A DNA stretch of 64,000 nt from Eubacteriales bacterium (GTDB lineage Bacteria; Bacillota; Clostridia; Oscillospirales; CAG-382): NCBI GenBank assembly GCA_045537905.1, contig JAZSQJ010000038.1, forward strand, positions 2,806 through 66,805, read 5' to 3'. Position numbers and translations under genes: made by a program. Position 1 is the first letter of the stretch. Each line of letters begins with the position of its first letter. Of this stretch, positions 12,993 to 42,899 are shown piece by piece. The notes beneath the pieces are model-generated. The model saw only the letters and a program-made list of their open reading frames with translations, searched no databases and had not been told where the DNA came from.

Positions 12993-13041
12993 TTTAAGGA
13001 GGAAGAAATAAGCTTATTATCTGTTAAAGGAGGAAAAGATT

Positions 13042-14038: not shown

Positions 14039-14137
14039 GTCTTTGTTTATCGCGTGGCGACGGTTGACGGTTACAGGGCGAAGGCGTCGGTCAGACCGCC
14101 GAGGCGGGTGGTGTCTTTTTTGCTCTTAAAAAAAGTG

Positions 14138-14166
14138 TTGACAAGTGGTATTAGGTGTGTTAATAT
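14138..14166 (+). promoter_or_regulatory. Sigma-A-type promoter of the blaI/blaR1-like operon
   Basis: TTGACA (14138..14143), 17 nt, TAATAT (14161..14166), with TGt immediately upstream of the -10. Confidence 0.65.
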
Positions 14167-14174
14167 AAACTTGT

Positions 14175-14193
14175 GGTCTATAGGCGATAGACC
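14175..14193 (+). promoter_or_regulatory. Candidate operator: perfect inverted repeat just downstream of the -10
   Basis: GGTCTAT aggcg ATAGACC: 7-bp arms, 5-nt spacer, 9 nt after the -10 hexamer. Confidence 0.45.
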
Positions 14194-14215
14194 GAACGGA
14201 AAGGAGAAAAGGGTT

Positions 14216-16766: not shown

Positions 16767-16778
16767 GAGGGCTTTTTA

Positions 16779-18854: not shown

Positions 18855-18908
18855 TCTGATTAAAAAATAACGTTTACACATTTTCGATAGACAGGAGGTT
18901 ACGTAATA

Positions 18909-20975: not shown

Positions 20976-21125
20976 CGCTGTTTAATAAAAACCGTTGGAG
21001 AGGAAAAAGTACAGACAAGACGAACCGAGGCGAAAACTGTAATACCACCCCACAAAAATACATTTTTTGCGGGTACCCCGATAGTACTGCGAGCCGAGGT
21101 TCGTTTTGAACTAAAAAACAAATAT

Positions 21126-21168
21126 AATGCAGAAAATTCAGGGAAATTTTCCCTGAATTTTCTGCATT
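21126..21168. terminator. 43-nt perfect palindrome; probable terminator or protein-binding site
   Basis: AATGCAGAAAATTCAGGGAAA t TTTCCCTGAATTTTCTGCATT. There is no T-run on the plus side. The A-run upstream would read as a T-run on the minus strand. Confidence 0.45.
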
Positions 21169-21363
21169 AGTATGAGTATATTTTATTCTTTTTCGTGCTC
21201 TGTGCCTTTGTCAGCGGTCTGAGGTTCCGCTTACAGGCACGAGGGGGTTATAAGGCAAAACGGCGCCGCCTTAAATGATAAGGACGTTTTTAGTTAAAAT
21301 GCCGAAAAATTGTATATATACGCTCGTTTAGGCACTATTTATAGAATTTAATTACAAAAAAGC

Positions 21364-21377
21364 TGTGCATTTGCACA
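21364..21377. promoter_or_regulatory. Candidate operator TGTGCA-tt-TGCACA upstream of the giant-protein promoter
   Basis: Perfect inverted repeat 17 nt upstream of the -35. A third TGTGCA half-site lies at 21405..21410 inside the promoter spacer. Confidence 0.35.
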
Positions 21378-21394
21378 AAAAACACGAAAAAGTA

Positions 21395-21423
21395 TTGACC
21401 TTTTTGTGCAAATGGAGTATAAT
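21395..21423 (+). promoter_or_regulatory. Sigma-A-type promoter of the giant surface-protein gene
   Basis: TTGACC (21395..21400), 17 nt, TATAAT (21418..21423). Confidence 0.6.
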
Positions 21424-21488
21424 TAATCTGTTAAAGTATCAACAATGGTATAGCTGTCTCATCCTTTAGGGGAATGGAGGAATATATA

Positions 21489-28831: not shown

Positions 28832-28861
28832 AGGGAAAAGACGATAAAAAGGGTGTTGATT

Positions 28862-29746
28862 ATGAAGCTTTACGCACCGTCCTACTACAAAAGCTTTGTA
28901 TGCATTGCGGACAAATGCGAGCATAGCTGCTGTATCGGTTGGGAAATAGATATAGACGGCGGAACCTTAGAAAAATACAAAGGCCTTAAAACCGGCTACG
29001 GCACTGCCATAACGGAAAGCGTGTCTACGGAGGGCAATCCCCATTTCAGGCTTTGCGCAGGTGACAGATGCCCCCATCTTGACGAAAATGGGCTGTGCAA
29101 AATCATACTGAACCTGGGGGAGGACTGGCTTTGCGGTATTTGCCGTGAGCACCCACGCTTTTATAACTACACAGGTCTTGCCGAGGTGGGTCTGGGTATG
29201 TCCTGCAGGGAGGCGGCAAGGCTTATACTGTCCTCCCCGGATTACGACGTGTTTGAGGAGATAGGCGAGCTTGACGCTGCTGAGGACGCTTTCTTGTTTG
29301 ACGGACGGGCAGAACGGGAAAGAGTATACAAAATATTAAAGGACAAAAGCACGGACTATAAATCCGTACTTGAGAGGATATATCGGGAATACGGCATAGA
29401 GCAGGGAGACGATAGGGAATGGCTTGCAGTGATAGAGTCCCTTGAATATCTGGACGACACCCACAAGGAGCTGTTTATGAGCTATTCCTCGGCAAAGCGT
29501 CCCTCTGTCGGGGAGGAGTATCTGGAAAGAGCCTTGGCGTATTTCGTCTACCGACACTGTACCGAGGCATACGATAAGGAGGATTTTTGTGTACGCCTTG
29601 CTTTTTGTCTGTTGCTGGAGCGGCTTTTGGCGTCGCTGATGTGCTACCGCGGGGCAGAGACCTTGGAGAAGGTTGCGGTTTTGGCAAGCATAGTCTCGGA
29701 GGAAATAGAGTATTCCGAGGACAACACCGAGGCGTTGATGCTTTGA
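28862..29746 (+). CDS. FliB-family Cys-cluster protein (flagellin lysine-N-methylase-like)
   Basis: YYKSFVCIADKCEHSCCIGWEIDIDGGTLEKYKGL...CPHLDENGLCKIILNLGEDWLCGICREHPRF follows the FliB pattern F.C.G..C...CC.GW.I.LD....KY ... CP.LDE..LC......G...L...C..FPR. Confidence 0.7.
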   Translation: MKLYAPSYYKSFVCIADKCEHSCCIGWEIDIDGGTLEKYKGLKTGYGTAITESVSTEGNPHFRLCAGDRCPHLDENGLCKIILNLGEDWLCGICREHPRFYNYTGLAEVGLGMSCREAARLILSSPDYDVFEEIGELDAAEDAFLFDGRAERERVYKILKDKSTDYKSVLERIYREYGIEQGDDREWLAVIESLEYLDDTHKELFMSYSSAKRPSVGEEYLERALAYFVYRHCTEAYDKEDFCVRLAFCLLLERLLASLMCYRGAETLEKVAVLASIVSEEIEYSEDNTEALML

Positions 29747-29786: not shown

Positions 29787-29815
29787 TTGACAATTATTGT
29801 AGATAATAGTATAAT
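29787..29815 (+). promoter_or_regulatory. Consensus sigma-A promoter heading the ten-gene operon
   Basis: TTGACA (29787..29792), 17 nt, TATAAT (29810..29815). Lies ~300 nt upstream of the ATG at 30113. Confidence 0.6.
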
Positions 29816-30112
29816 AAACCGTGAAAAAAAGGGTTGTTTTACACTTCTATAGGATATATAATCGGTTTTTTCATAGAAAATCAGCCAAACGGGTGCGGTT
29901 TTAATTGAAACTTCAAAACAGTACGGTAAAAAGAGTCTTTTAATCAGAGCAAAAACAAAGCAAAAGGGTAAAGCGTTACAAAAAATGCAACTCGAGTATT
30001 TGTGATAAAAGCTGTGAAAAAAGGCGCTTTTTGTCTTTTTATACATATTACGGAGCGTAAGGCTTTAGAAGCCTTATATTTGAGGCTTCACGACGAAAAA
30101 GGAGGGCGGATT

Positions 30113-31357
30113 ATGAATTTTGATTTTCTAAACACAACGGATTTTGAAAGCAAATACAGGGGCGAGCTTATATCAAACGCTTTGAAATCGGAGGTGTATG
30201 CAAGAATTGACCCCGGTGCGTCTCTTGCGGCGTCCCGTATGGTGCTGGAGGCTTTGATAAAAGGCATTTTGGAGGGACACAAGGAAACAAAAAGAACGTA
30301 TGATCCTCTTTACAAAATGATTGATTTCTGTCAGGAAAAAGGGTATATTTCCGCAGAAGACCACCATAAAGTTGTAAACAGCATCAGAAAAAACGGCAAT
30401 CTGGGGCATCATATCAATTCGCTGAATCTGAGAGTGCCCACGGAGGGGAACGTAGAGCTGGCTTTTACCGTGCTTAAAGATTTGTTTGCCCTATTGAAAA
30501 GCCATTTTTCAATAGACCGTGACTTTGATGAGGACGGAGTTCCCTTTGAAGGCTATGAAGTGATAAGAAAAGTTAAAAAATCCGAGAGGGAAGTAATTGT
30601 TGGCGAGTACAATTATTTTGTAAGGGCAGCAGATGGAGACGAATACTACCTACAGCTTGTTCCACGCTTCGGTGACGAAGACGAAATGGCTTTGGTAAGA
30701 AGAAGCGAGGAGGCACGGGTTGCTATAAAGGAGTCTTTTTTTGCACCCCGTTATTACCATATAACGAACATGGACATTATAGACGCTCCCTTCAGAATAG
30801 TGCTGTATCCTGTTAAAAAGGACTCTTTTCTTCTTTCTGAAAACAAAAAGGTTTTTAGCAAAAAAGATCTTCTTGACATCGGGCTTGGTATTGTTCGTGC
30901 TTTGAAGGAGCTTAAGGAAGCTAGGCAAGGAATATATCACCGTAATATCAATCCCGGTTGCGTTGTTATAGTTCCTTTTAACGGTATGTATTACGCCGTC
31001 CCCGTAAATTTGCAGACGGCAAAAATCCAAAACAGCGACCTTACCGTTATGCCGCAAATAAACCTGAACAACAATTCTTATATCCCCGAGGACGTATGGG
31101 GAATGAAAACGGAGGATGTGTTAAGGGTGGATTGGGAAAAGGTAGAGGTCTACTCTGTAGCAAAAACCGTTCTGTACGCCTTCGATCCCAAGCTGGCAAT
31201 AGACAAAGTTCCCACGTCTAAGGCTTTGGCACAGATGAGCAGAAAGGGCTATTCCGTTGACTTTCTGGACTTTTTCAAAAACATTTTAGACGGGGATCAC
31301 AGCAACAATCCCAGCTTGGATGAAATGGAGCAGGTGTTTCTCGACGAGCTTAAATAA
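30113..31357 (+). CDS. DUF4145-like N-terminal domain fused to a degenerate protein-kinase-like domain (predicted pseudokinase)
   Basis: ATG 30113 after AAAGGAGGG; track start 30002 rejected. N-domain: ASLAASRMVLEALIKGIL...VVNSIRKNGNLGHH (DUF4145-type R..GN..H). Kinase-like C-domain: GIYHRNINPGCVVI (HRN 30938..30946 where kinases have HRD), no DFG (VPVNLQ), YIPEDV in place of APE, then VDWEKVEVYSVAKTVLYAF. Confidence 0.75.
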   Translation: MNFDFLNTTDFESKYRGELISNALKSEVYARIDPGASLAASRMVLEALIKGILEGHKETKRTYDPLYKMIDFCQEKGYISAEDHHKVVNSIRKNGNLGHHINSLNLRVPTEGNVELAFTVLKDLFALLKSHFSIDRDFDEDGVPFEGYEVIRKVKKSEREVIVGEYNYFVRAADGDEYYLQLVPRFGDEDEMALVRRSEEARVAIKESFFAPRYYHITNMDIIDAPFRIVLYPVKKDSFLLSENKKVFSKKDLLDIGLGIVRALKELKEARQGIYHRNINPGCVVIVPFNGMYYAVPVNLQTAKIQNSDLTVMPQINLNNNSYIPEDVWGMKTEDVLRVDWEKVEVYSVAKTVLYAFDPKLAIDKVPTSKALAQMSRKGYSVDFLDFFKNILDGDHSNNPSLDEMEQVFLDELK

Positions 31358-31370
31358 TCGGGAGAGAAAA

Positions 31371-32231
31371 ATGGAAAAACGCAAAACAGAAAAAATCATT
31401 TACAATAATGAGGAAACAAATACCCTTTGCAGCTTTGCCGTGGACCGGGAATACGGAGAGTGCTTTGTAAAGGTTTTCAATTACGGTAGGTTTTCCCAGC
31501 GAAAGCAACGGGAGTCTTGCCTTGCTTTGGCAAAAAGCGAGGCGAAAACGCTATGCGAGCTTTCCGAAATTTCCGCTTTGGCAGGTAAGGTACCCGCCTT
31601 GTATGAGCACTATGACAACAAAGCCAAGGGTCAGTACGTTATAGTTATGGAAAAGATGAAGGGGAAGACCTTAAGAGAGTGGATGGGCGATCACCCTGCG
31701 TCCGCTATGGATCAGAAGGGATTTTACGCCAGACGGAAAATCGTTCAGCAGATATGCGAGATAATGCGGACTATAAATAAAAGACATTCCAGGATAGTAC
31801 ACCGTGACCTGAAGCCCGAAAACGTTATTATCCGTATGGAGGATAAGCGTTGGAAGGTAGCGGTGATAGATTTTGGCTGTGCAGGTCTTAATTTTGCCAG
31901 GAAGCTGGGAACAAGAAGCTATTGCGCGCCCGAACAGCATCCAAGCTATTGTGAAAGCCTTTCAACAAATTACGGTGCGCATACCGATATATTTGCCATA
32001 GGTCAGATTTATTACGAGCTTTTGCTGGGGGAGGCACAAGCCTTTGGCGTGCATTACGTGAAAAGCAGAGGAAGGGCTGAATGGGAAAAACGGCCGTGTC
32101 TTAGCGAGGCTTTGCAGAAAATGCCCGGTGGAAAAGATATAGACAATCTTCTGAAGAGGATGACGGAATTTGACCCTGAATGCAGGAAGTATGAAATAAG
32201 CTACGACAGAATTATTTCGGTGTTGAAATAG
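31371..32231 (+). CDS. Ser/Thr protein kinase (Hanks-type catalytic core intact)
   Basis: ATG 31371 after GGGAGAGAAAA. GECFVKVF (beta-3 Lys), IVHRDLKPENVII (HRD 31800..31808), VIDFGCAG (DFG 31869..31877), GTRSYCAPEQ, DIFAIGQIYYELLLG. No canonical GxGxxG loop. Confidence 0.88.
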   Translation: MEKRKTEKIIYNNEETNTLCSFAVDREYGECFVKVFNYGRFSQRKQRESCLALAKSEAKTLCELSEISALAGKVPALYEHYDNKAKGQYVIVMEKMKGKTLREWMGDHPASAMDQKGFYARRKIVQQICEIMRTINKRHSRIVHRDLKPENVIIRMEDKRWKVAVIDFGCAGLNFARKLGTRSYCAPEQHPSYCESLSTNYGAHTDIFAIGQIYYELLLGEAQAFGVHYVKSRGRAEWEKRPCLSEALQKMPGGKDIDNLLKRMTEFDPECRKYEISYDRIISVLK

Positions 32232-32243
32232 GAGGCGTTGTGA

Positions 32244-32411
32244 ATGAGCGATAGGGTACGAAGTCTTTTTACAGACGAGGAATGGAAGCTTTTGACGGAA
32301 GCGGACGAGAGACTTTGTTATAGGGCGGAGGCGTTGCCCTTATCCGGAAATACCGACAAGGAAAGGATTTGCGAAGCTAATGAGTCTATTGCAGTTGCAA
32401 CCACAAAATAG
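32244..32411 (+). CDS. Small acidic ORF, 55 aa (not in ORF track)
   Basis: AGGAGG RBS 8 nt upstream of ATG 32244. Translation: MSDRVRSLFTDEEWKLLTEADERLCYRAEALPLSGNTDKERICEANESIAVATTK. TAG at 32409..32411. Overlaps the first candidate helicase start by 32 nt. Confidence 0.5.
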   Translation: MSDRVRSLFTDEEWKLLTEADERLCYRAEALPLSGNTDKERICEANESIAVATTK

Positions 32412-35400
32412 CTATAAGGTATTAACCACTCCGTTTGTTATATATATTACAGAAAAAATGTCCATCGACAAGGTGGATAAAGTGGTTGATGTTTTAGGAA
32501 AACGGAAGCACCTTTCTTTTTGCATAGAAAAAAACAGGAAAACAGGCGATACCAGGTGTGTTCTTACCGACCGCAAGTTTTGTATGAATCTTGCCCTTAG
32601 CTATGACAACAGAAACTTTTCCGTATGCTGGATAAGCAACGACAAACGAACTCTTGACAAGTACAATAAGCCCGGCTTGGACTTGTTTCTCGTGGAGCTA
32701 AAAGGCGGCATTAAGATTATTTATGCCAACAAAATGTATTATAACAGTGCCAAACCCGATATCTTCGGTGACGATTGGAAGATGGACCGGGCAGACTTTG
32801 ACGATGTTGTAAGTCGAATGGAGCGTCATTATGCCCTTGGCGGTTTTGTTGACGAAAAAGACGAAAAAAGCAAAATCAAGCTCAGAAAACCCGGCTACTT
32901 TTTTGAAGCAGAGGTTATGGCGCCTTTTAAGGCTTACACAGAAAAGGAGCGCAAGGTTGCGGAGGATAAGGCAGGCAGCGGAGATGGCGTAGGCTTTTAC
33001 AATAGTGCCTTTGCCTATCACGTCGGCAAGGGGACTACCTACGTTTTCTATTCCAACGATCCTGCCGCCAACCCGGAAAAGCCTCTTCTTAAGGAAGGGG
33101 ATATGGTTACTCTTTACGATTTGAATGATAAGCTTTGTCAAACGGGAAGGATATCGGAGATCGACGCCGACTCAGAGGAAAGCGTTAAGTTTTATATAGG
33201 CTTTCTTTTTCAGACCAACGACGTGGAGATACCAAGAAATGGCAAGATGGTTCTGGCACATAACGATACCCAGGACAAGGTTCGCGAGAGGGTAATAAGA
33301 GGCATTAGCTCCGGCAAGGTCAAAGCTCAGTATATGTACGACGTATTTGAGACCTTCAGCGGAGAGGGATATTTCACTGCCGACTACAGGGACCAACGGG
33401 AACAAAGCCCTGTGGAGCAGGGGAAGGTGCAAGCAGACCTTGCAGCTTTTCTTGACGGACTGCTGAAGGAAACGGACAAAAAAGGCGGCCCTCAGTATCC
33501 CCCAAACGAGATGCAGATGGAGGCAATAATAAAGGGCATTCTTACAAAGGATATGCTTTTGGTTCTGGGCCCTCCCGGCACGGGTAAAACCACCGTTATT
33601 ACCGCCTGGGTGGATTATTTTGTAAGGAAGGGGATGCGTGTACTAATCTCATCGCAAAATAACGCCGCCGTGGATAACGTGTTGTGCCGTGTTGGCGAGG
33701 ACGTAAACGTGGTGCGTCTGGCGGGAGACGAAAAAAAGGTTCAGGAAAACTGCCGCGGGTTTATGCCTATGCATAAGCAAAAAGATATGCAAGCGAAGTG
33801 CCAAACCAACAACGACAAAATATTGTCCCTGCTGAAAGCCGATCTGGAAGTCATAAGCCAACGCAAAAAGCGTCTGGAAGAATATTTGAGACTTATAAGC
33901 CATTGCAAGGAAAAGAAAGAGGCGTTTGAAAAGGACAGAAACCTGGTTTTATATCAAATGGACGGCGTGGTAACCTATGACGGAAAAATTAAACACTGTC
34001 TGTCTGAGATTGACCGACTGGTGGAGGAAAGAGCACATAAGCAGATTTTTATTGAGGAAAACAAAAAGAAAAACTTTTTAGTAAGGCTTTTTACCAAACG
34101 CTACGTAAAGCGTGCGACGAAGGAGCTAAAAAGCACCGAGCAGGCTTTGAGGGAAACCGTGACGGAGTACGAGGCAAGCGTAAATGGTTACAACAAGAAA
34201 GTGGAAGCGCTTAAGCTGCAGATAGAGCAGGCAAGGAAAAACGGTTACTACCGTTTATACCTGGAGTCAAGCCGTTCTCTCGAAAGCTTTGCCTCTGAGC
34301 ACATCGTTGCCCGGGACGAGGATAAAAACGTGTCTGTTATCGGCATCAGCTTAAACAGCGAGCTGGGCTCTTTGTATGAAAGCTTTGATTACAGTCCCGA
34401 TTCCACGAAGAACGAAAGCACGGCCAATAAAGAGATATCGCATCTTATTTCTTTGGAGAAATCAGCGGCGGCTTTGAAGAAAGCCGTTACAGAGTGGCAA
34501 GTGGCTATTGAGAATGGCGGTAACGAGATATTTGAGGAAATGCTTATTTCCACCTGTCAGGTTGTTGGTGCAACCTGTATCGGCATAAACTCCAACAAAA
34601 AATTTGCTGAGGTGGATTTTGACGTGGCTATCGTTGACGAGTCGGGACAGATTCAGATTCACAACGCTCTCGTTCCCCTCAGCAGAGCGCCCAAGGCGTT
34701 GATGCTGGGCGACTATAAGCAAATCCCCCCCTGTGCCAACGAGGAGGTTTTAAGCGCTTGTGAAAACGAGGGTATAGATACAAAGCTTCTTAACGAAAGC
34801 TTCTTTGAGTTTGTGTTTGAAAAGATGCGTGAAGAGGAAATCGAAAGGTTTATCGAAGAAGCGAGAGAAGGCGGAAGCGAAGACGCCGAAATAAGCGAGG
34901 AAAAAGAGCTTGCCTTAAGGCGTGAAGCCAAGGCAAAGCTGTTAGCCCCGGTTTTAACGGAATACAATCCCAAGCATTACCGCTCCTTAAGCACGGAGGA
35001 AGAAAAACGGCAGTATCTTAAAAACATGGTTGCAACTATCGTTACCGACGATAAAAGGATCGTCAACCTTAACAGCCAGTTCAGAATGCCGGGTAACATC
35101 TCCGACGTTATTTCCGAGTGGTTTTATGAAAGCAATTACTACTCAAGCTATGCTATGAGCAGATTTGCACCCGTACTGCCTAATACGGAAAAGCCTATGG
35201 TAGTAGTAAATACCGCAAATTTCAGCTCCAGGTTTGAGGGTCAACCCGATAATAAGCTGGGTTACTTCAACAAATACGAGGCAGGCTTGGTAGCGGATAT
35301 CATAGAACAGGTTATAAACAGTCTGCCCGAGGAAAACCGAAGCGAATACGTGGAAAGAATCGAAGACAAGGTAGGTGTTATATCTGCATACGGTGCCCAG

Positions 35401-35910
35401 GTGCGTATGATAAGGAAAACCTTGGGCGAGCGTAAGCTGGGCATCGGCGACAGCTCTATCAACGGTATGGTAGCGTCTCTGGACAGCTTTCAGGGTCAGG
35501 AGAGAGAGCTTATCATATACAGCTTTACCAGGAGCAAGGAGGAGACAAGCCCTCGTTCTGCCCGTGTAGGTTTTATGAAGGAGCTGCGTCGCTTGAACGT
35601 TGCCTTTACCCGAAGCAAAAAACAGCTTGTGATTATAGGCGACATAGATTACTTAAAGAAATGCCTGTATATGAAGACTGATGAGGAGGAAGGCGTTATT
35701 CCTTGCTGTACAAAGGGTCGGGACGGTATAATCACAGAGGAACAGATAAATCAGTGTGCAGAATGCCCCGTGATGGAATGCGAGCGTAAGTTTGCCCGTT
35801 TCGTCCGTTTGCTTATGCAGCACGTTGAAAACCCCCAAAGTCCTGCAGGGGACCTTATAGGGTCCGAAAACCTCGTTAAGCATCTGAAAGGAGGTACAAA
35901 GCAGTGTTAA
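32380..35910 (+). CDS. Superfamily-1 helicase, Upf1/DNA2-like (AAA_11/AAA_12 type), with ~390-aa unassigned N-terminal region and Cys-rich tail
   Basis: Walker A LVLGPPGTGKTT (33568..33594). Long coiled-coil insert. Motif II AIVDESGQ (34633..34650), then LMLGDYKQIPP, NSQFRMPGNISD, VGVISAYGAQV, SLDSFQGQERELIIYSFTRS, RRLNVAFTRSKKQLVIIGD. Tail C..CC..C..C..C at 35662..35781. Start uncertain: 32380 or ATG 32458. Confidence 0.9.
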   Translation: MSLLQLQPQNSYKVLTTPFVIYITEKMSIDKVDKVVDVLGKRKHLSFCIEKNRKTGDTRCVLTDRKFCMNLALSYDNRNFSVCWISNDKRTLDKYNKPGLDLFLVELKGGIKIIYANKMYYNSAKPDIFGDDWKMDRADFDDVVSRMERHYALGGFVDEKDEKSKIKLRKPGYFFEAEVMAPFKAYTEKERKVAEDKAGSGDGVGFYNSAFAYHVGKGTTYVFYSNDPAANPEKPLLKEGDMVTLYDLNDKLCQTGRISEIDADSEESVKFYIGFLFQTNDVEIPRNGKMVLAHNDTQDKVRERVIRGISSGKVKAQYMYDVFETFSGEGYFTADYRDQREQSPVEQGKVQADLAAFLDGLLKETDKKGGPQYPPNEMQMEAIIKGILTKDMLLVLGPPGTGKTTVITAWVDYFVRKGMRVLISSQNNAAVDNVLCRVGEDVNVVRLAGDEKKVQENCRGFMPMHKQKDMQAKCQTNNDKILSLLKADLEVISQRKKRLEEYLRLISHCKEKKEAFEKDRNLVLYQMDGVVTYDGKIKHCLSEIDRLVEERAHKQIFIEENKKKNFLVRLFTKRYVKRATKELKSTEQALRETVTEYEASVNGYNKKVEALKLQIEQARKNGYYRLYLESSRSLESFASEHIVARDEDKNVSVIGISLNSELGSLYESFDYSPDSTKNESTANKEISHLISLEKSAAALKKAVTEWQVAIENGGNEIFEEMLISTCQVVGATCIGINSNKKFAEVDFDVAIVDESGQIQIHNALVPLSRAPKALMLGDYKQIPPCANEEVLSACENEGIDTKLLNESFFEFVFEKMREEEIERFIEEAREGGSEDAEISEEKELALRREAKAKLLAPVLTEYNPKHYRSLSTEEEKRQYLKNMVATIVTDDKRIVNLNSQFRMPGNISDVISEWFYESNYYSSYAMSRFAPVLPNTEKPMVVVNTANFSSRFEGQPDNKLGYFNKYEAGLVADIIEQVINSLPEENRSEYVERIEDKVGVISAYGAQVRMIRKTLGERKLGIGDSSINGMVASLDSFQGQERELIIYSFTRSKEETSPRSARVGFMKELRRLNVAFTRSKKQLVIIGDIDYLKKCLYMKTDEEEGVIPCCTKGRDGIITEEQINQCAECPVMECERKFARFVRLLMQHVENPQSPAGDLIGSENLVKHLKGGTKQC

Positions 35911-36881
35911 AGCTTTCAAAGGAAAAGATAAGAGAACACTACCTTAGCTTTATGAAAAATCTAAGCCCCGACGTTTTTCTTAAGCCCTTGTATTTTCAAC
36001 CCTTTCAGTGTCCCGTAGCTATGACCGATGTAATGGCTATAGAACGCCAGGTTCAGGACTTCAGCGTGTTTTCGCTGTTGATTCTCCGTTTGATAGAGGC
36101 AGGCTTCAGAAAGCCGGAGCAATTGGTTTCAATTTCGGGAATGAGCAAATCAACGGTAGAATCGTTTATTGTCAGATCCGTCGTTGACGGGCAATGTGAG
36201 TTTGTTGACAAGGACGATCACGACAAGGGCGTTGTGCTTACTGCTCTGGGCTTGGAGACCTTGGAGGAAAACGAAAAACAAACCGCAAACGTCCTGGAGC
36301 CCAAGGGTTACGTTGAGTACGAAACCCCTCGCAGGCTGCATATAGAGGCTGTTACGGGGACGGTTCTCCCCGTGTATATGGAGCGGGGAATGAAGGACGC
36401 CGAGCCTGACGAGACTTTGGGAAACCATATTCTTCCCAGAGAAAGCGTGGAACGGGACGACGAGCTTCTCCGTGAGATTAAGGCCAGAATAGGGGAGTAT
36501 GTAGATACCGACCGTATAGCTTCAGGCGACGTCGTTCAGACCGTCAAATCCATAGAGTCCATACGCATTCGTTTCCGTTGGGCGTATCTTGTCAGGTTTG
36601 AGGGAATGGTCTACCCCATGATAGTTATGACGGGTAAAAAAAGCGCAGACAAGCTTAATGCGGCAAGCAAAACCAAAGGCAAGCTTGGTTTTGTTGCCAC
36701 GCCCTTGGCTGTATCCGAAACCGATAGGGCGTTTTTAGGCAGCCTGGGCGAGGAATTCAAAAGGGTGATGGTAAGAAGCGACAAAAACTTTGAGTACCTT
36801 GAAAAAAGCATCAGCTCCTTCCGCTTCGACCCTCTGCCCGTGCTTGCCTCCGAGGGGGACGATAAGGAGGACAAAGAATGA
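35904..36881 (+). CDS. Hypothetical protein with N-terminal winged-helix-like segment
   Basis: GTG 35904 lies 9 nt after AAGGAGG and overlaps the helicase stop by 7 nt. FSLLILRLIEAGFRKPEQLVSISGMSKSTVESFIVRSVVDGQCEFV..VVLTALG looks like a wHTH. The rest is unassigned. Confidence 0.7.
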   Translation: MLKLSKEKIREHYLSFMKNLSPDVFLKPLYFQPFQCPVAMTDVMAIERQVQDFSVFSLLILRLIEAGFRKPEQLVSISGMSKSTVESFIVRSVVDGQCEFVDKDDHDKGVVLTALGLETLEENEKQTANVLEPKGYVEYETPRRLHIEAVTGTVLPVYMERGMKDAEPDETLGNHILPRESVERDDELLREIKARIGEYVDTDRIASGDVVQTVKSIESIRIRFRWAYLVRFEGMVYPMIVMTGKKSADKLNAASKTKGKLGFVATPLAVSETDRAFLGSLGEEFKRVMVRSDKNFEYLEKSISSFRFDPLPVLASEGDDKEDKE

Positions 36882-37387
36882 ACGTAACCAGACAATGGAC
36901 CTGCTCCTGCCGTAGCGTAAACGGTTTGAGGCATAAAGCTTGTCCTCTGTGCGGAAAAGCTATCCCCGCCGAGGTCTGCCAAAAGGTATACAGCGAGGAA
37001 CTGGCTATGCAAAAGCAAGCCGTTGCAGACGAGCTGCGCCGCCGCCACAACCGCTTCTGGCAAAGGAACGAGGGCAAAATTCATAGGGGCGCAAAGCTTT
37101 GTCGGTTTATAAGTCTTGTTTTGGTTGCGGTATTCATAGGCTCTTTTTACGGGCACAGCAGTCAGATAAGAGCCGAGGATTTAGACAGCAGATGGAGTGC
37201 TGTTTCACAAGCCGTGGTCCAAAGGGTGGAAAGCACCGACTTTGAGACCCGAGAAGGCGAGGTAAGCATCACCCTGTTTGAACGCTTTGCTGAGCTGGAC
37301 GTTGACGGGCTGAACAAGTGCTTCAGTGAAATAATAGCCTTGTTCGAGCAAAGGATAGAGCAAATTTTTAATACAAAGGAGAATTAA
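36878..37387 (+). CDS. Zinc-ribbon + single-TM protein
   Basis: ATGA overlap with the upstream gene and AAGGAGG RBS. WTCSCRSVNGLRHKACPLCG has two Cys pairs. TM segment LCRFISLVLVAVFIGSFYG. Confidence 0.7.
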   Translation: MNVTRQWTCSCRSVNGLRHKACPLCGKAIPAEVCQKVYSEELAMQKQAVADELRRRHNRFWQRNEGKIHRGAKLCRFISLVLVAVFIGSFYGHSSQIRAEDLDSRWSAVSQAVVQRVESTDFETREGEVSITLFERFAELDVDGLNKCFSEIIALFEQRIEQIFNTKEN

Positions 37388-37394
37388 TCTGATT

Positions 37395-37784
37395 ATGTCA
37401 CCGGAAACGATTAAACTTATAATTGCATATATAGCCGTCGCTATAGGCGGACTTTCGGTATTTCTTCTGTGGGTCTACGCCATCGAAGCCCTGAAGGGCG
37501 TAGCCGTTACGGAATATCAAGTCTATAAACGCTACGTCAACGTAAGCTATGCGTTTTTTGTGTTTATTTCTGCAGTTGTATGGTTCTCTACTACCGTAGC
37601 CGACGCTTTGTTTTTCTGGTCCCTTTTGATAATGAGCGGACTTTGGCTGCTTTCGGGTTTTGTAATTTTCATACTTTCCTTTTTCGCCTCAGAGGCGAGC
37701 GGCAAACAACGTGTCCGTTCAACTCTTATACCTTGTATTATAAAAACGGTAGTATCGGCTTTGATTCTTATGTTTATCGCTTAA
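37395..37784 (+). CDS. Small 4-TM membrane protein
   Basis: 129 aa with four hydrophobic helices. AAGGAGAA lies upstream. Confidence 0.65.
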   Translation: MSPETIKLIIAYIAVAIGGLSVFLLWVYAIEALKGVAVTEYQVYKRYVNVSYAFFVFISAVVWFSTTVADALFFWSLLIMSGLWLLSGFVIFILSFFASEASGKQRVRSTLIPCIIKTVVSALILMFIA

Positions 37785-37806
37785 CCTAAAAAGGGGGGAT
37801 ATTGCA

Positions 37807-39294
37807 ATGAAAATAAATAAAAATGCGGTATTGCGGTATGCGGTTCCCTTCTGCTTTGAAGCGTCGGCAGACTACGGCGTTTTATGCAAGACCTTGGAGG
37901 CTGATAACGAAAGGTGGACTCCCGAGGCGTGGACAAACGTGGAAAGGGATACCTTTGAGTATCTTTACCGCTCCCTGTTTTATGAGAACGATAACTGCCA
38001 CATCGGTAGCGGCTGGCGATACAGCCTTGCAAAAGCTCCTTTGCACTTGCGTTATTACCCTGATGAGGAGCAGAGGGAGATATCGTACAGCTTCTCGGTT
38101 AAAACTATGGGGCTTTATATCTTTCGCACCAACGTGGGGGTCTTGTGGTACGAAATCACCCTTCCCAAAAAGAACGGGAGGGAGGAAAACAAACTGTTGG
38201 ATGCAAGCGTCCTCGTGGATTTTCAAAACCGTTTTAAGGAGCTAAACTATCGCCGCAACAAAAACTTTACGGTAGTCTCTCCCCTGGGGGAAGAAAAGAC
38301 TTTGGTAATGGGTGACGTAATCGATGGGCTGTTAAAAAGTCTTTCGTCGGATATTCACTATCTTAACGGCACCAGAGAGAGTGACGATGGCGGGGAACGG
38401 CCCGATAAAGCGCTGATATTCAATTACGTGCTTACGGAGGGGCAAGGATACGACGAGGACGAGCTGCACAGAAGCTCCTACGCTTTAGCAAACGGCTACA
38501 ATTACCGTTACCGAATGGCAAAAAGCGTGAAAGAGGACTTTATAGAGCCTTTTGACAAAGCCTGCTGGTATGCCTCCCGAGGAGGCTGTGGATATTTTGC
38601 TTACGTGGATGAAGCGGAGGATAACAGCTTTTTCAGGAGAGTACTGCCCAAGCGTATAAGGGGCGACTATTTCTTTATGTATATTCTCGTCCTTTATCAG
38701 ACCTATAGCATTCTTAACTATCTCCGTCGCCTGATGCAGTACTATCCCGCTGACCCAAAAAAGTATTTCGAGCCGGAGCAGGCAGAGGAGCTTGATATAT
38801 TTACAGCCGAAATAAACACCTTTTTGATGAAGGGAATGTATTCCTCGGTAAGTAACGTTAACCACCACAATGTTTTCTTTCAGTATTTGCAAAAGCGTCT
38901 TAGCGTTAAGGAGGATATCGAAAGCATTACGATGGGTGTAAACGCTATGGCAAAGGTGCAAAGAGTTTACAAGGAAAAGGAAGAAACACGCTTAAAAGCG
39001 GAGGAGGAAAAAAGAGAAGCCAGACACGGCAGTCAGCTTAACTTGATTCTTACCGTGATCTCCCTGCTATCTGTGTTCTCTGCCTTGGTGGATATGCACG
39101 AGTTTATGAACCGAATTGAACTAATCGGTACCGATGGCGGATACGTAAAAGGAATATGGAAGCTGCTTACCAACGGAGACGTCCTTACTTATTTACAGCT
39201 GTTTGTGGGCTTGGCAGTGATAGGCCTGTCTGTAGCCTGCGTTGTGATTTTGATAAAGAATTGCTTGGAAAACCGCAAAAGCAAGCAAAAATAA
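37807..39294 (+). CDS. 495-aa protein: large soluble domain, charged coiled coil, C-terminal two-helix membrane hairpin
   Basis: AAAGGGGGGA RBS. KVQRVYKEKEETRLKAEEEKREARHG is followed by TM1 LNLILTVISLLSVFSALV, then F-M-N (39103..39111), a ~35-aa loop, and TM2 LQLFVGLAVIGLSVACVVILI. No family recognised with confidence. Confidence 0.75.
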   Translation: MKINKNAVLRYAVPFCFEASADYGVLCKTLEADNERWTPEAWTNVERDTFEYLYRSLFYENDNCHIGSGWRYSLAKAPLHLRYYPDEEQREISYSFSVKTMGLYIFRTNVGVLWYEITLPKKNGREENKLLDASVLVDFQNRFKELNYRRNKNFTVVSPLGEEKTLVMGDVIDGLLKSLSSDIHYLNGTRESDDGGERPDKALIFNYVLTEGQGYDEDELHRSSYALANGYNYRYRMAKSVKEDFIEPFDKACWYASRGGCGYFAYVDEAEDNSFFRRVLPKRIRGDYFFMYILVLYQTYSILNYLRRLMQYYPADPKKYFEPEQAEELDIFTAEINTFLMKGMYSSVSNVNHHNVFFQYLQKRLSVKEDIESITMGVNAMAKVQRVYKEKEETRLKAEEEKREARHGSQLNLILTVISLLSVFSALVDMHEFMNRIELIGTDGGYVKGIWKLLTNGDVLTYLQLFVGLAVIGLSVACVVILIKNCLENRKSKQK

Positions 39295-39320
39295 ACACCA
39301 CTCGGAAAGGCGGTGTGAAG

Positions 39321-39761
39321 ATGAAAAGCTATAGATTTATATGCAATTGCAGTGCAGATACCTTCCGCTTTGAGCTGGGCGCCATACTTGGCTCCTATTT
39401 CGACGGCTGTTACTTTAACGGCAAGGTAGAGGAAGGCTCCTTCAACGTAAGAAAAAACAACTTCCCCGGGGGGCGTAGATTGCCTCGCCCCGATATCGTT
39501 GGAAGGTTTTACGGGGAGCAGGGCAAGACCCACGTAGAGATAAAGCTTGTTTACCGTACGTGGTATAAGCTGTTGATAGGCTTTTTATCCTGTATCCTTT
39601 TGATAGGCAGTCTGGTTAATGCCTTTACACCGGGAAAGGACAGCCTTGTTAATATAATAGCGCCTTTGATTATATGCGGGGTTATGAACCTTACGGTTGT
39701 GATAATCGCCCGTTGGCATTTACGGAAGCTGAAAAAGCTGTTAGGTGTAAAAATGTTTTAA
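39321..39761 (+). CDS. 146-aa protein, soluble N-domain + 2 TM
   Basis: ATG 39321; the track start 39156 overlaps the preceding gene and was rejected. TM segments WYKLLIGFLSCILLIGSLVNAF and IIAPLIICGVMNLTVVIIA. Confidence 0.6.
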   Translation: MKSYRFICNCSADTFRFELGAILGSYFDGCYFNGKVEEGSFNVRKNNFPGGRRLPRPDIVGRFYGEQGKTHVEIKLVYRTWYKLLIGFLSCILLIGSLVNAFTPGKDSLVNIIAPLIICGVMNLTVVIIARWHLRKLKKLLGVKMF

Positions 39762-39776
39762 TAATTGGTGGGGTAT

Positions 39777-40430
39777 ATGATTGAAAGACTCATATTTTTA
39801 AGCCTATTCACTGTAGGACTGGGTGTTTTATTTTTTATTATCGCCTTTGTTTTGATTAAGCTGAAGGCACTGAACTACCCTATGGCTATACGCCTGAAGC
39901 AAAAGCTTATAAGCTTTGTTTTGTCTGCTTTTATTTTCGGTTTATTACCGTTGCCTGTGGGGTTTATTGTATGGACGGCAGTGTTTTTCCTGTTGCGATA
40001 CCTTGTATTCAAGAAGGACAAATACGCTCTTAACACCATCTACAGGCAGTTTGAGGGAAATCTGCCCATAGTATCCACGCCAAAACAGATAATTGATGCC
40101 ATAAAAACAAAGGAAACAAGAGAAAAACCTTTGCGAGAGTACGGCTATAGCTTTTTAAGCTATGTCGACAGCACCCTTGTACCCGTTTTGTTTTGCTGTA
40201 TCGGGCTTGCAGAGCTTAACAAAACGCCCTTGCTTTTGTATATAATAGGATATTTTGCCATGGCAATATGCATCAGTCTTTTGCTTTGCAAGCTGTTTTA
40301 TAAAGTGTTTTTGAACGCACCCCAATCTCCGTCATATTTAAGTCCCCTTGGAGCAAGTATTATTGTAGCGGCTTTAGGATTGATTTATTGGTTTGTTGCG
40401 GTGTTTATTTTTTATACAACCGTAAGGTAG
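39777..40430 (+). CDS. Polytopic membrane protein (about 5-6 TM)
   Basis: ATG 39777 after GGTGGGG (alternative TTG 39765). Multiple hydrophobic helices with a ~50-aa soluble loop. Last gene before the terminator. Confidence 0.65.
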   Translation: MIERLIFLSLFTVGLGVLFFIIAFVLIKLKALNYPMAIRLKQKLISFVLSAFIFGLLPLPVGFIVWTAVFFLLRYLVFKKDKYALNTIYRQFEGNLPIVSTPKQIIDAIKTKETREKPLREYGYSFLSYVDSTLVPVLFCCIGLAELNKTPLLLYIIGYFAMAICISLLLCKLFYKVFLNAPQSPSYLSPLGASIIVAALGLIYWFVAVFIFYTTVR

Positions 40431-40502
40431 TTTACAATGAGACACCAAACGCCGACACCTACCTTGTTGATTAGTAGGGGATGGGCGGCTACGCTATACA
40501 AT

Positions 40503-40531
40503 AAAAGCCTGCGGATTTCCGCAGGCTTTTT
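40503..40531. terminator. Bidirectional intrinsic terminator
   Basis: AAAA GCCTGCGG attt CCGCAGGC TTTTT, lying between convergent genes. Confidence 0.8.
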
Positions 40532-40541: not shown

Positions 40542-42899
40542 TTACGCCTTGAGCATAGCCATCAAGGCTATATAATCTGCCGAGTTGATTACCGCGTCCA
40601 CGCTAAGGTCGGCGGCGGCGAAGGTGCATCCTACCGGCTCCGTTTTGCCTACCAGGTAGGAACGCATCGTAATGTAATCGCCTGAGCTTACTGCACCGTC
40701 ACAGCTTACGTCGCCCATTATGACAATGTCTGCGCTGTCTGTAACCGTACCGCCAAAGTCCAGGCTTTGTACGGTGCAGGCGGTGGAGATAATATCTCCC
40801 TCAGCCAGCACTGCGCCGTTTTTTACAACACGCAGGGTGTTTACGTTAGAAAAGGAAGCTATAATTTGAGAAACGCTCGTACCGATTACCGCATCCATTA
40901 TAAGCCCATCCTTAAGGCTTATGGCGGCGTTTGTGCCAAGGCTTAGCTTGTAGCTCTCCTGCAAGGGCGGGTCTGCCGTATAGCTGTTTGACAGCACGCG
41001 GATGGCGGTCTGGTTTTTGTTATCGGAAAGGGGTTGAACGACAACGTACGTATCGTTACCGTAAACCTTTATGCCCTGTACGGTAAGCATAAGGTCGGCT
41101 ATACGGTACACGGTCTTAAGGGTGGCGTTGCCGCCGTTGGTGTACAGATACTTATATATCAAGGGTAGCTGGAGCTTTGATGCAGAGCCGCCTACCATAT
41201 ACAAAAACTTGGCGTCGGTACCTACACCGTCAGCCTCAAAGCCCTGGAAGGAGCTGTTTGGCTGGCTGTTAAGGCAAAAGTGGCTTTTTACCATAGAGGC
41301 GGCGTTTTTCATAGAGTAGCTGCCGCTTGATGCGGTGATGGCGGCGTTAAGAGTGGTAGTAGTATACACCGTGTAGTAAATATCGCCCGACACAAACTGG
41401 GTGCGGACAACAAGCCTGTTATCCCCCTTGCTTGTCATTGCAACGGCAACACGCTTAACCCCCGTGCTATCCGTGGCGGTGCCTGTAGCGTTGGCGTAGG
41501 CAAGGTCGGTAATGCTTTTTGCACTAAGGGTAGCGCCGCCGTTGCCTACCGTATATTCAAGCCTTTGCAGGGTGGTAGCGTAGCTGTCACTGCCGTAAAC
41601 GGGTGCACCTCCCGTCCACAGATAGGTCTTGCCGCTTACGCTTTCGTCTACCTCAAGGCTTTCACCTATGCCTGCCCCCGTAAGCACGGCGTAGTCTGCC
41701 ACACGGGCAACGTTGCCGTTAAGCAAGCAACGGGAGATGTAGGTGTCACTGCCCGAGCGTTGACTTATATAAAGCTCTGTCATAGCCTCGTTAAAGGCAA
41801 AGCTTTGGGTAGCGTTGTTTACGGGCAGACCCTTGACGGTGTACTTGTGGTTGGCGTGGACGGTGGTTACGGCGTAATCGTCCAGGGTGTATATCTTGGT
41901 TTTGTTCTTCTTGCCGTCGCCCGTTTCGTCATCAATAAAAATACAGTAGAAGGAGCCGTTAAGCATATAAGCGCTTTCTATCTCCACCATACTCTTGTCG
42001 GGTACCGTCCAAACCTCTTTAAGGGTAATAGAGGAGGAGGTATAGCTGTATTTGTGGATGGTGGGGGTTTGCTGGTTGGAGCCCCCTGAGAAGTACAGGG
42101 TGCTTGTACCGTCCAGCCCCATCCCCTGCATAGAGCCGTTAGGCAGGTCGCCGTTGTAGCTTATCTTGGCAAGGAGGTTTGAACCCATAGTGCCCATATC
42201 CACGGCGCCGCTAGAGGCGGAGAGGGCGGCGTTAAGGGCAGAAAACTTGTAGCAGCAAAGGAACTGCTTGTAGGTGGAGCCGTTTTTGAACTTAAGCCAA
42301 AACATTATTCTGTCGCTGTTGGGGGAGGCGGAAAACGCCATACGGAATATACGGGCACCGGAGTATATAGAGCTGCCGTCAGCGGTGGCGTTTATAAAGT
42401 CGGTAAGACGCTTGGTGTCGCTGATACGGGCACCGGTGGCCTGGCTGCTGTCGGGCACATATTTGAAGCGGTAGAAGGTGCGTGCCCAGTAGGTGGTGGT
42501 ATACAAAGCATCGGTCTCGTCGGTGATGGTGTTGCCCACCACGTACACGTAAGGCTCACCCTCGTAGTCGTAGACTGCCAGTGCCTCACCGTGACCGTAG
42601 TTGGTAAGCACCACGTAGTCCAGACGGGTGGCTGTAAGTCCGTCGTCAGAGACCAGACAGCGGGAGAGATACGTGTCTGCCTTAACACGCTGGGTGGCAA
42701 ATACGTAGCGATTGCCCTCTGCATCGTTATAGAAGAAAAACTGCTGTACCGCCTTGTTGGTGCCAAGGTTTTTAAGGGTCATAACGGGGTTAGGCGTTTT
42801 CGTATGGGAGGTGTAGGCGCCTACGCTTTCCGCCGTGAAGCAAAAAGCACTAAGCAAAATTACTGCCGTAATAAATAAAGAAACAAGTCTTTTTATCAT
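40542..42899 (-). CDS. Secreted protein with two tandem ~300-aa paralogous modules and a C-terminal dockerin
   Basis: Signal peptide MIKRLVSLFITAVILLSAFCFTAESVGA. Module pairs: DTYLSRCLV/DTYISRCLL, LDYVVLTNYGHGEAL/ADYAVLTGAGIGESL, LNAALSASSGAVDM/LNAAITASSGSYSM, MQGMGLDG..LYFSGGS/FQGFEADG..LYMVGGS. Dockerin: GDVSCDGAVSSGDYITMRSYL..ADLSVDAVINSADYIALMAML. Confidence 0.85.
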   Translation of the reverse strand: MIKRLVSLFITAVILLSAFCFTAESVGAYTSHTKTPNPVMTLKNLGTNKAVQQFFFYNDAEGNRYVFATQRVKADTYLSRCLVSDDGLTATRLDYVVLTNYGHGEALAVYDYEGEPYVYVVGNTITDETDALYTTTYWARTFYRFKYVPDSSQATGARISDTKRLTDFINATADGSSIYSGARIFRMAFSASPNSDRIMFWLKFKNGSTYKQFLCCYKFSALNAALSASSGAVDMGTMGSNLLAKISYNGDLPNGSMQGMGLDGTSTLYFSGGSNQQTPTIHKYSYTSSSITLKEVWTVPDKSMVEIESAYMLNGSFYCIFIDDETGDGKKNKTKIYTLDDYAVTTVHANHKYTVKGLPVNNATQSFAFNEAMTELYISQRSGSDTYISRCLLNGNVARVADYAVLTGAGIGESLEVDESVSGKTYLWTGGAPVYGSDSYATTLQRLEYTVGNGGATLSAKSITDLAYANATGTATDSTGVKRVAVAMTSKGDNRLVVRTQFVSGDIYYTVYTTTTLNAAITASSGSYSMKNAASMVKSHFCLNSQPNSSFQGFEADGVGTDAKFLYMVGGSASKLQLPLIYKYLYTNGGNATLKTVYRIADLMLTVQGIKVYGNDTYVVVQPLSDNKNQTAIRVLSNSYTADPPLQESYKLSLGTNAAISLKDGLIMDAVIGTSVSQIIASFSNVNTLRVVKNGAVLAEGDIISTACTVQSLDFGGTVTDSADIVIMGDVSCDGAVSSGDYITMRSYLVGKTEPVGCTFAAADLSVDAVINSADYIALMAMLKA

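Follow-up and report, generated by a model that had tools for sequence, protein, structure and literature searches.

What would an operon do that lines up two kinase-like proteins, an Upf1-like helicase, a winged-helix protein and a run of membrane proteins, and, if it is a defence system, which of these proteins would act on the infected cell? We address this question for ten genes, g1 to g10, on the + strand of a 64,000-nucleotide stretch of DNA from an Eubacteriales bacterium (the whole of this stretch is referred to here as the window). An earlier inspection of the letters and open reading frames (ORFs), called here the sequence-only reading, had assigned the parts to families known from anti-phage defence, and our PADLOC matches agree with this. 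It had also concluded that the genes could not be matched to any named system and that they held no nuclease motif, and neither of these conclusions stands. The kinase g2, the helicase g4 and the winged-helix protein g5 match MkoA and MkoB of the Mokosh system in PADLOC, the membrane protein g8 matches CRISPR CorA-like proteins, and g1 carries a DUF4145 domain, i.e., a HEPN RNase domain, in which the catalytic signature is preserved, including the Arg and His that are equivalent to R146 and H154 of the defence protein RAZR. Judged by homology, the locus shares ancestry with Mokosh type I as a relative in which MkoA is split in two and the PLD is missing. The homology of helicase, kinase and adaptor to Mokosh I places these three parts, at the level of sequence, among what is already known; what is surprising here is a HEPN-pseudokinase beside an active-looking kinase and an Upf1-like helicase, the loss of the PLD nuclease, and a CorA-like protein that comes without second-messenger machinery.

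Mokosh type I consists of MkoA, a Ser/Thr kinase (STK) joined to a COG1112 RNA helicase, and MkoB, a PLD nuclease; the ATP site of the helicase and the nuclease site are required for defence, and the helicase has been proposed as the sensor (Millman et al. 2022). The corresponding parts of the window are as follows:

31371..32231, + strand: g2, Ser/Thr kinase, active-looking (Pfam Pkinase, 4.9e-21)
32380..35910, + strand: g4, Upf1/DNA2/IGHMBP2-like superfamily 1 (SF1) helicase of 1176 residues (Pfam AAA_11, 4.9e-31; AAA_12, 3.9e-38)
35904..36881, + strand: g5, protein resembling the N-terminal part of MkoB, with a winged helix at about residues 55-125

Against the PADLOC model of MkoA (PDLC03920), g2 matches model positions 36-265 (7.2e-22) and g4 positions 620-1082 (7.4e-93), so that the Hanks-type kinase and the Upf1-like COG1112 SF1 helicase look like two halves of MkoA. 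The third protein, g5, matches the MkoB model (PDLC03922) at 1.5e-8 over positions 11-197 of 610, i.e., over the N-terminal ~190 residues, and the same MkoB region is matched by all ten of its close relatives. The differences from Mokosh type I are these: (i) kinase and helicase form one polypeptide in MkoA, whereas they are separate genes here and in all related loci; (ii) MkoB carries a PLD nuclease, whereas g5 lacks the PLD, and no Pfam PLD match at E<=0.1 and no HxKx4D (HKD) motif was found in any protein of the operon; and (iii) the conserved genes g1, g3, g6 and g7 and the optional g8 are additional to the Mokosh set. Mokosh type II, in which an N-terminal helicase and a C-terminal PLD make up one protein, is matched by g4 through the helicase only (MkoC, 3.3e-40), again without PLD.

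Other named systems fit less well. The kinase models of PD-T4-6 and of mad6 (MADS) are matched by g2 at 1e-19 to 1e-21, which reflects a shared Hanks fold only, MkoA being the best and most specific match, and none of Stk2, PD-T4-6, BREX PglW and MADS has the set of helicase, MkoB N-terminal domain and HEPN-pseudokinase. Membership in PD-T4-6, Stk2, BREX or MADS was therefore rejected, the matches of g2 being to the generic kinase fold. CoCoNuT/TerY-P, which combines an Upf1-like helicase with an STK, was rejected because the locus has no McrBC, VWA or PP2C. No paper or database model describing this gene set was found in the open-access library that was searched or in PADLOC-DB v2.0.0 (2023).

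The catalytic parts of g2 and g4 appear complete. In g2, the catalytic residues are K34, E57, D146 of the HRD motif (31806-31808), N151, the DFG motif (31869-31871) and APE, and K34, E57, H144/D146/K148/N151, D167-F-G and P187-E do not vary across seven homologues; there is no evident Gly-rich loop of the classical type. These motifs mark g2 as a Hanks-type Ser/Thr kinase whose catalytic signature is intact. The helicase g4 has its Walker-A lysine at K403 (33586-33588) and DESGQ at residue 753, and among PDB entries it matches DNA2, IGHMBP2, Upf1 and Sen1 at 1e-27 to 1e-16. The sequence-only reading had expected just these Pfam families and intact kinase motifs, and it had placed the codons of D146 and K403 correctly. 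Further features of g4 are the N-terminal ~370 residues (32380-33490), which are without annotation, a long helical insert between RecA motifs, and a Cys-rich tail (CC...C..C....C; 35680-35910, residues ~1100-1176), which gives weak zinc-finger matches.

Between kinase and helicase lies a very short ORF that had been proposed as a gene:

32244..32411, + strand: g3, small acidic protein of 55 residues (12 acidic, 8 basic)

An acidic ORF of 41-56 residues with the consensus M..IRDLFTEEEW..L...LPL occupies the same place in the syntenic loci, and g3 is thus a real gene, as had been proposed. The g4 start (ATG 32380) overlaps g3 by 32 nucleotides (nt), and this start is supported because the same overlap is kept in homologous loci.

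What, then, has taken the place of the PLD nuclease in g5? The AlphaFold2 (AF2) model of g5 (predicted local distance difference test, pLDDT, 68) finds matches in Foldseek only to winged helix-turn-helix (wHTH) proteins (MarR, Csa3), as expected from the wHTH-like character first ascribed to g5, and a PDB sequence search returned chance-level matches only (uL30m, E about 0.6). A hidden nuclease fold in the C-terminal half of g5 was considered and is unsupported, Foldseek seeing a winged helix only in this model of pLDDT 68. More telling are the relatives. A search with the g5-family profile among 1.84 billion representatives returned 154 clusters, and the remote ones are ~420-residue proteins that combine the MkoB N-terminal region with a PF24409 winged helix, again with no PLD. 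Two of the relatives are fusions, namely P0274 (1443 residues), an MkoA-like helicase with a g5-like domain at its C-terminus, and P0272 (733 residues), in which a g5-like domain is followed by a region with multiple transmembrane (TM) segments and which lies within the syntenic core in Natranaerofaba. Because of these two fusions, links between the helicase and g5 and between g5 and membrane proteins can be drawn, and we predict that g5 acts as an adaptor, bound to the helicase and bearing or recruiting a module that can vary. The g5 proteins also share an unusual end: both the window copy and its relatives have acidic C-terminal tails, which are shorter than that of the 496-residue homologue P0147, where ~150 residues consist nearly entirely of Asp, Glu and Tyr repeats.

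The candidate nuclease is found at the other end of the operon, in g1:

30113..31357, + strand: g1, fusion of a HEPN(DUF4145) domain and a pseudokinase (Pfam, motif and profile comparison)
30197..30472, + strand: HEPN(DUF4145) domain of g1, residues 29-120 (Pfam DUF4145)
30386-30388 and 30410-30412: codons of R92 and H100, which together with N96 are the key HEPN residues of g1
30938-30946, + strand: HRN motif of the g1 pseudokinase domain, residues ~165-414 (PDB kinase matches, hhalign)

Residues 29-120 of g1 match Pfam DUF4145 with 28.4 bits (cut-off 23.1), and the isolated domain with 30.5 bits, which bears out the DUF4145-like head of the sequence-only reading; distant g1 homologues also match the family (9e-5 in L008 and 6e-4 in L017). 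DUF4145 is a family within the HEPN superfamily of metal-independent RNases (Anantharaman et al. 2013). The family consensus was probed by scoring point mutants of g1(1-160) against the DUF4145 profile, which gave 30.5 bits for the wild type, 25.2 for R92A, 24.7 for N96A, 24.8 for H100A, 24.4 for G95A, 28.2 for G95R, 24.2 for R42A and 25.9 for E46A. From these score losses, the consensus is R...E ... R..GN...H, and all of the signature residues are kept in g1. In a set of ten homologues, N96 and H100 never vary and at least 90% conservation is seen for R92 and G95, and after two remote homologues were added N96, H100, R42 and E46 were still invariant. When the domain profile was compared with the PDB, a single entry was returned, 9Y9C (RAZR), which bears the annotation 'DUF4145 domain-containing protein' and in which R146 and H154 align with R92 and H100 (E 0.05).

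RAZR (PD-T7-4; Nature 2026, PDB 9Y9C) cuts ssRNA, its targets being tRNA, rRNA and mRNA, and its R146A and H154A mutants abolish phage defence. Both proteins belong to the same DUF4145 HEPN subfamily with the R..GN...H motif, g1 R92 and H100 aligning with the catalytic R146 and H154. However, RAZR is a single protein of ~220 residues, with an N-terminal Cys4 zinc finger and a C-terminal DUF4145, that is activated by assembling around phage protein rings, whereas g1 lacks the zinc finger, has its DUF4145 at the N-terminus followed by a pseudokinase, and is part of a helicase/kinase operon.

The remainder of g1 has a kinase fold. A profile of six homologues reaches PDB kinases with a best value of 3.5e-10, and hhalign relates the g1 kinase domain to the g2 family at 96.5%. 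The HRN in place of HRD and the missing DFG, both of which had been noticed before, are conserved features: in all eight homologues, including very distant ones, the catalytic Asp is replaced by N, S, R or A and DFG is absent. By this conservation the C-terminal domain of g1 is an ancient, conserved pseudokinase, and g1 as a whole is predicted to be an active HEPN RNase joined to a pseudokinase. The arrangement recalls RNase L and Ire1, in which a kinase or pseudokinase is fused to a KEN domain, itself a HEPN RNase. As in those proteins, a HEPN RNase is joined to a (pseudo)kinase, and regulation through kinase-domain dimerisation or nucleotide binding is suggested. In contrast to them, g1 has the reverse order, with the HEPN domain N-terminal, is of the DUF4145 type with no KEN/Ribonuc_2-5A match in Pfam, and has neither ankyrin nor lumenal sensor domains. 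The likeness is most simply read as convergence.

Do these genes belong together? The five-gene core of g1, g2, g3, g4 and g5 is colinear in about 50 loci from Clostridia metagenome-assembled genomes (MAGs) and genomes. The shared order is HEPN-pseudokinase, kinase, small ORF, helicase, g5-like protein, zinc-ribbon TM protein and 4-TM protein, with helicase identities of 32-56%, and it is kept in deeply diverged branches as well. Four of the five GTDB loci show this order (in MAGs of Lachnospira, Lachnospiraceae, Butyrivibrio and Acetatifactor), the fifth, in a Ruminococcus MAG, having only a g5 fragment; it is further found in 36 metagenome loci, mostly from the human gut, and a Clostridium chromosome (L008) also carries syntenic genes. 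Counting for each gene only the loci that are long enough to show it, g1 stands beside g5 in 32 of 35 loci, and g2 and g4 each in 33 of 35. Synteny across many genomes, whose absence had been named as a possible refutation, was thus found, the kinase pair and the membrane genes co-occurring in most loci. We are confident that this cluster of genes is real, that it is conserved in Clostridia of the gut and rumen, and that it is related to Mokosh.

The membrane genes follow the core:

36878..37387, + strand: g6, N-terminal zinc ribbon CxC..CxxC (residues 8-28) and one TM helix (residues 74-92) (sequence, hydropathy)
37395..37784, + strand: g7, small polytopic membrane protein with about 4 TM helices (hydropathy)
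37807..39294, + strand: g8, CorA-like membrane protein of the type III CRISPR-associated kind, an optional module (PADLOC)
39321..39761, + strand: g9, 146 residues, 2 C-terminal TM helices (hydropathy; no Pfam, PADLOC or NCBIfam match)
39777..40430, + strand: g10, 217 residues, about 5 TM helices (hydropathy)

These predictions fit the earlier description of g6 to g10 as membrane proteins, including one of 495 residues (g8) with a C-terminal TM hairpin. They differ greatly in conservation. The gene g6 was detected in 28 of 38 loci, with its zinc ribbon conserved across the syntenic loci, and homologues of g7 lie at the position known from the window in 25 of 38; g8 occurs in 5 of 25, upstream or downstream of the core; and no homologue of g9 or g10 was found in any related locus (0 of 25). 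The ten-gene system of the sequence-only reading is therefore to be trimmed: g1 to g8 recur as a set, but g9 and g10 are lineage-specific add-ons whose membership in the system is doubtful. Since g10 has the lowest GC content of the operon (0.39, the rest being 0.42-0.50) and neither gene has a homologue in related loci, a later insertion of g9 and g10 between g8 and the terminator is suggested. The core may also be found with other arrangements downstream, as in L016, where no membrane gene follows it, and in L017, where g5 is fused to TM helices.

The optional g8 is the membrane protein with the most specific affiliation. It matches the PADLOC CorA-like models PDLC01043 (4.5e-12, residues 269-479) and PDLC01174 (2.4e-9), colinear over its N- and C-terminal parts, as do 12 of its 13 relatives, and hydropathy places the C-terminal TM hairpin at residues 410-428 and 465-483. 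Its AF2 model (pLDDT 76.6) shows an alpha/beta soluble N-domain, long helices and the C-terminal TM hairpin; a PDB sequence search gave no match. The CorA of type III CRISPR is a toxic, TM-dependent membrane effector gated by S-adenosylmethionine-AMP (SAM-AMP), and g8 shares with it the matches to both CorA-like models and the architecture of soluble N-domain and C-terminal TM hairpin. Unlike it, g8 is optional, and no cas10 or SAM-AMP-degrading enzyme (NrN, lyase) was found among the ten operon proteins (PADLOC, Pfam, NCBIfam) or the scanned neighbours in the window. A longer g8 relative of 602 residues, P0142, ends a separate cluster of three genes (469 residues, a TPR protein of 1122-1167 residues, 602 residues) at 4112-11016 of L018 and 4888-11809 of L019, on contigs that bear a type IV secretion system (T4SS) coupling protein and a primase. 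This cluster may be another candidate conflict module on conjugative elements, and the occurrence of the 602-residue relative there fits the notion of g8 as a portable module.

How might these proteins work together? We propose that the locus is a Mokosh-related system in which the helicase acts as sensor, the HEPN RNase is turned on by the kinase pair, and variable effectors are coupled through g5. We consider this model as a whole somewhat more probable than not, a role of the locus in defence likely, and the specific activation scheme, from kinase pair to HEPN RNase, possible but tentative. The helicase g4 would patrol RNA or nucleic acid and recognise a product of the invader, as proposed for Mokosh. 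Recognition would be passed to the kinase pair, in which the active g2 would phosphorylate, or pair with, the g1 pseudokinase. Two g1 HEPN domains could thereby be brought together into a composite active site, comparable to the dimerisation of RNase L, Ire1 and other HEPN RNases, the sites of HEPN RNases being composite dimer sites. The resulting cleavage of RNA would shut down translation and lead to abortive infection or growth arrest. In parallel, g5 would bind the helicase and dock a variable second module. In classical Mokosh this would be the PLD, in some relatives it would be a TM domain fused to the g5-like part, and in the present system it would consist of g6 and g7 as membrane proteins in their own right, joined in a minority of loci by the CorA-like g8. 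This membrane module may add membrane depolarisation or damage, tether the complex to the membrane, or sense; g9 and g10 would be local passengers.

In a wider and more speculative form, which we regard as rather unlikely as it stands, the system would be a bacterial counterpart of the eukaryotic RNA surveillance that joins helicase, kinase and endonuclease (nonsense-mediated decay, NMD, and RNase L/Ire1). In NMD, Upf1 is phosphorylated by SMG1, and endonucleolytic cleavage follows. By analogy, an Upf1-like helicase stalled on aberrant or foreign RNA would act through the kinase on the HEPN-pseudokinase RNase by kinase pairing, the N-terminal domain of MkoB (MkoB-N) would serve as a universal adaptor for interchangeable effectors (PLD in Mokosh, membrane channels here), and the CorA-type pore would open without a nucleotide messenger. 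If this were true, the mechanism of Mokosh could be tested through its split, modular version.

Several points weigh against the defence model proposed here. All of it has been predicted from gene order and sequence, in Clostridia of the gut and rumen that are uncultured, and the HEPN call on g1 in particular is a sequence-based one (28-30 bits, with an E of 0.05 for the RAZR match in the PDB). Activation by dimerisation is an analogy, because the order in g1, from HEPN to pseudokinase, is the reverse of that in RNase L and Ire1. The model of g5 is mediocre (pLDDT 68) and its C-terminal half is without a known fold, and the Foldseek matches of g8 to CorA (2bbj, 5n77, 5jtg, 8tmi) are weak, with E of 0.1-0.3 and low TM-scores. 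Many of the loci are close relatives and not independent, so the counts given above overstate the number of independent observations. Finally, the window is no defence island, most related loci are not clearly in such islands either (four GTDB loci and the window were inspected), and no copy was found on phages or plasmids (tblastn with g5) or on viral contigs (pattern scan).

Which other explanations deserve attention? The sequence-only reading had the helicase and the wHTH protein sense, the kinase pair signal by phosphorylation, and g6 to g10, above all g8, kill by membrane disruption, with no nuclease involved. Membrane proteins do follow the g5-like gene in most loci, one relative joins the g5-like domain to a TM region, and g8 shows homology to the CorA-like effector of CRISPR, a toxic protein that depends on its TM domain. 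However, this layout is no longer the only reading because g1 carries a HEPN RNase domain, whose signature is intact and invariant or nearly so across the family. The distribution of the presumed killers is also unfavourable: no more than 5 of 25 loci have g8, not one of them has g9 or g10, and the core of L016 lacks a downstream membrane gene. Moreover, no enzyme producing a ligand for a CorA-type channel was found among the operon proteins by Pfam and PADLOC. Membrane proteins as effectors are probably not the leading explanation, and the nuclease-free version of the system is unlikely.

The same genes could instead stand at the start of the pathway. Following a logic like that of Ire1, g6 to g8 would sense an envelope event (phage adsorption, DNA injection or membrane stress) or anchor the complex, the signal would pass inward through g5, then through the kinase pair, and so reach the HEPN RNase, with the helicase selecting or remodelling the RNA substrate instead of sensing. 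This explanation draws on the same membrane genes behind the g5-like gene in most loci, the g5-like-TM fusion and the CorA-like g8, and in addition on the positions of g6 and g7, which are more conserved than any obvious effector, and on proteins such as Ire1, in which kinase and HEPN domains make up membrane-anchored stress sensors. Yet the membrane genes are missing in L016 and therefore cannot be a universal sensor, and in Mokosh it is the helicase, with its required ATP site, that is proposed to sense. We regard a sensor at the membrane as improbable, if only slightly more so than the membrane killers just discussed.

That the locus is no immune system at all but a lineage-restricted pathway of RNA surveillance or stress response, by which some Clostridia act on their own transcripts, would suit the ordinary chromosomal genes, without islands, around the window and several related loci, the want of copies on phages, plasmids and viral contigs in our searches, and a parts list that parallels eukaryotic RNA quality control, but it is very unlikely given the very patchy spread of the family (5 of 185,579 species genomes; 154 clusters in 1.84 billion representatives), flanking DNA that changes from lineage to lineage and shows no similarity beyond the operon, accessory genes that are modular and swappable, loci that are decayed or deleted (L051 and L053), the McrBC, integrase or transposase genes that adjoin some loci, and the fact that the nearest characterised relatives (Mokosh, RAZR and CRISPR CorA) are all defence components.

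The defence model thus remains the one we prefer, and the genomic context that bears on it is mixed. The neighbours in the window are dockerin and leucine-rich repeat (LRR) surface proteins, a BlaR1-type peptidase, hom, ClC and ATP-binding cassette (ABC) exporters. A pattern scan of 185,579 species genomes found the family in five of them. When the window is compared with L001, its closest relative, the DNA is similar in the operon only and the flanks differ, and in general the flanks vary by lineage: L009 adjoins McrBC on a conjugative-like element, L010 adjoins integrase, transposase and a Card1-like gene, and other loci adjoin ordinary genes. The check for defence islands proposed earlier has given a mostly negative answer, with some loci near McrBC, integrase or transposase genes, but the window and most loci outside islands.

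The locus matters chiefly for what it may say about Mokosh, which is common and was still called incompletely characterised in a 2026 review. It separates the kinase, the helicase and the N-terminal domain of MkoB into single genes and therefore offers a natural dissection of that system. It also marks the winged-helix region of MkoB-N as the likely adaptor from helicase to effector, with the PLD swapped for other modules. A bacterial HEPN-pseudokinase next to an active-looking kinase and an Upf1-like helicase has parallels in RNase L/Ire1 as well as in nonsense-mediated decay, and is relevant to the question of how eukaryotic RNA-based immunity is rooted in prokaryotes, and a CorA-like protein of the CRISPR type outside a CRISPR or second-messenger context raises the question of how such a channel is gated.

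Is the operon a single unit? The elements around the genes are as follows:

29787..29815, + strand: sigma-70-type promoter, TTGACA-17-TATAAT, the sole 12/12 match within 28-42 kb
29816..30112, + strand: leader of ~290 nt between the promoter and g1
40503..40531, no strand assigned: GC-rich hairpin AAAAGCCTGCGGATTTCCGCAGGCTTTTT between an A-run and a T-run, read directly in the sequence

An ORF check recovered all ten + strand ORFs, head to tail over 30113..40430, with purine-rich ribosome-binding sites ahead of nearly all starts and gaps of 3-26 nt between genes; g4 and g5 overlap by 7 nt, and g5 and g6 share ATGA. The promoter, the ribosome-binding sites, the ten ORFs on one strand and the gaps of at most 26 nt were all found as first described. 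Of the overlapping junctions, the sequence-only reading had given two, g4/g5 and g5/g6, correctly, but it had missed the third, the 32-nt overlap of g3 and g4. The number of promoter-like sites in 28-42 kb equals the expectation from shuffling, and only the site at 29787..29815 stands out. The hairpin with its T-run, also described before, is visible in the sequence, although it was passed over by the consensus terminator scanner, probably through absorption of the A/T flanks into the stem. As it is flanked by an A-run and a T-run, the hairpin could serve both of the converging genes, and it is a probable bidirectional terminator common to the operon and the convergent gene at 40542-42899. The GC content of the operon (0.43-0.48) is slightly under that of the downstream region (0.49-0.53). 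Taken together, a single tightly packed operon of g1 to g10 is supported.

The length of the leader brought to mind a riboswitch or leader RNA, an idea that was rejected, as an Rfam scan of the whole window, leader included, gave no match and the leader shows no conservation with the upstream regions of related loci. The promoter hexamer region is the only upstream part that resembles L001 (36 nt, 75%).

Further genes accompany the system in its relatives. In the Lachnospiraceae branch, g1 is immediately preceded, in the same orientation, by the gene of an unannotated protein of 710-760 residues with no Pfam match; this was seen in 15 of 25 long loci (e.g., L003 5582-7714, L011 2167-4452, L012 2238-4367 and L014 1933-4194); it is absent from the window. 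In L003, L012 and L040, a CorA-like gene precedes it. In L051 (7745-10564), a 710-residue accessory gene of this kind stands almost directly before a partial g5, g1 to g4 being missing; L053 consists of compressed fragments, and L054 and L015 have g5 fragments only. These decayed loci suggest gene loss, as expected of a dispensable system.

Other neighbours are of a different kind. In L010, a Card1-like endonuclease-domain protein (406 residues) and an AAA_2 ATPase (492 residues) are encoded at 4746-7486 on the - strand, divergent from the system, and in L005 an AAA_2 ATPase (445 residues) and a 73-residue ORF lie beside it (15274-16870, - strand); the Card1-like and AAA_2 genes may be a separate two-gene defence pair that travels with the system. 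Just upstream of the promoter, the window has a Cys-rich 'FliB-like' gene (28853-29746) with no Pfam match at 1e-5, and a gene with a faint FliB_C match (3010-4014) lies near the system in L010. Further upstream, positions 8759-27545 of the window hint at a host that is a Clostridium of the cellulosome type, as they hold a cluster of secreted or surface proteins, which comprises a dockerin-bearing subtilase, two BspA-type LRR proteins (one with a dockerin), another dockerin protein, a BlaR1/M56 peptidase-like sensor and a repeat protein of 2023 residues.

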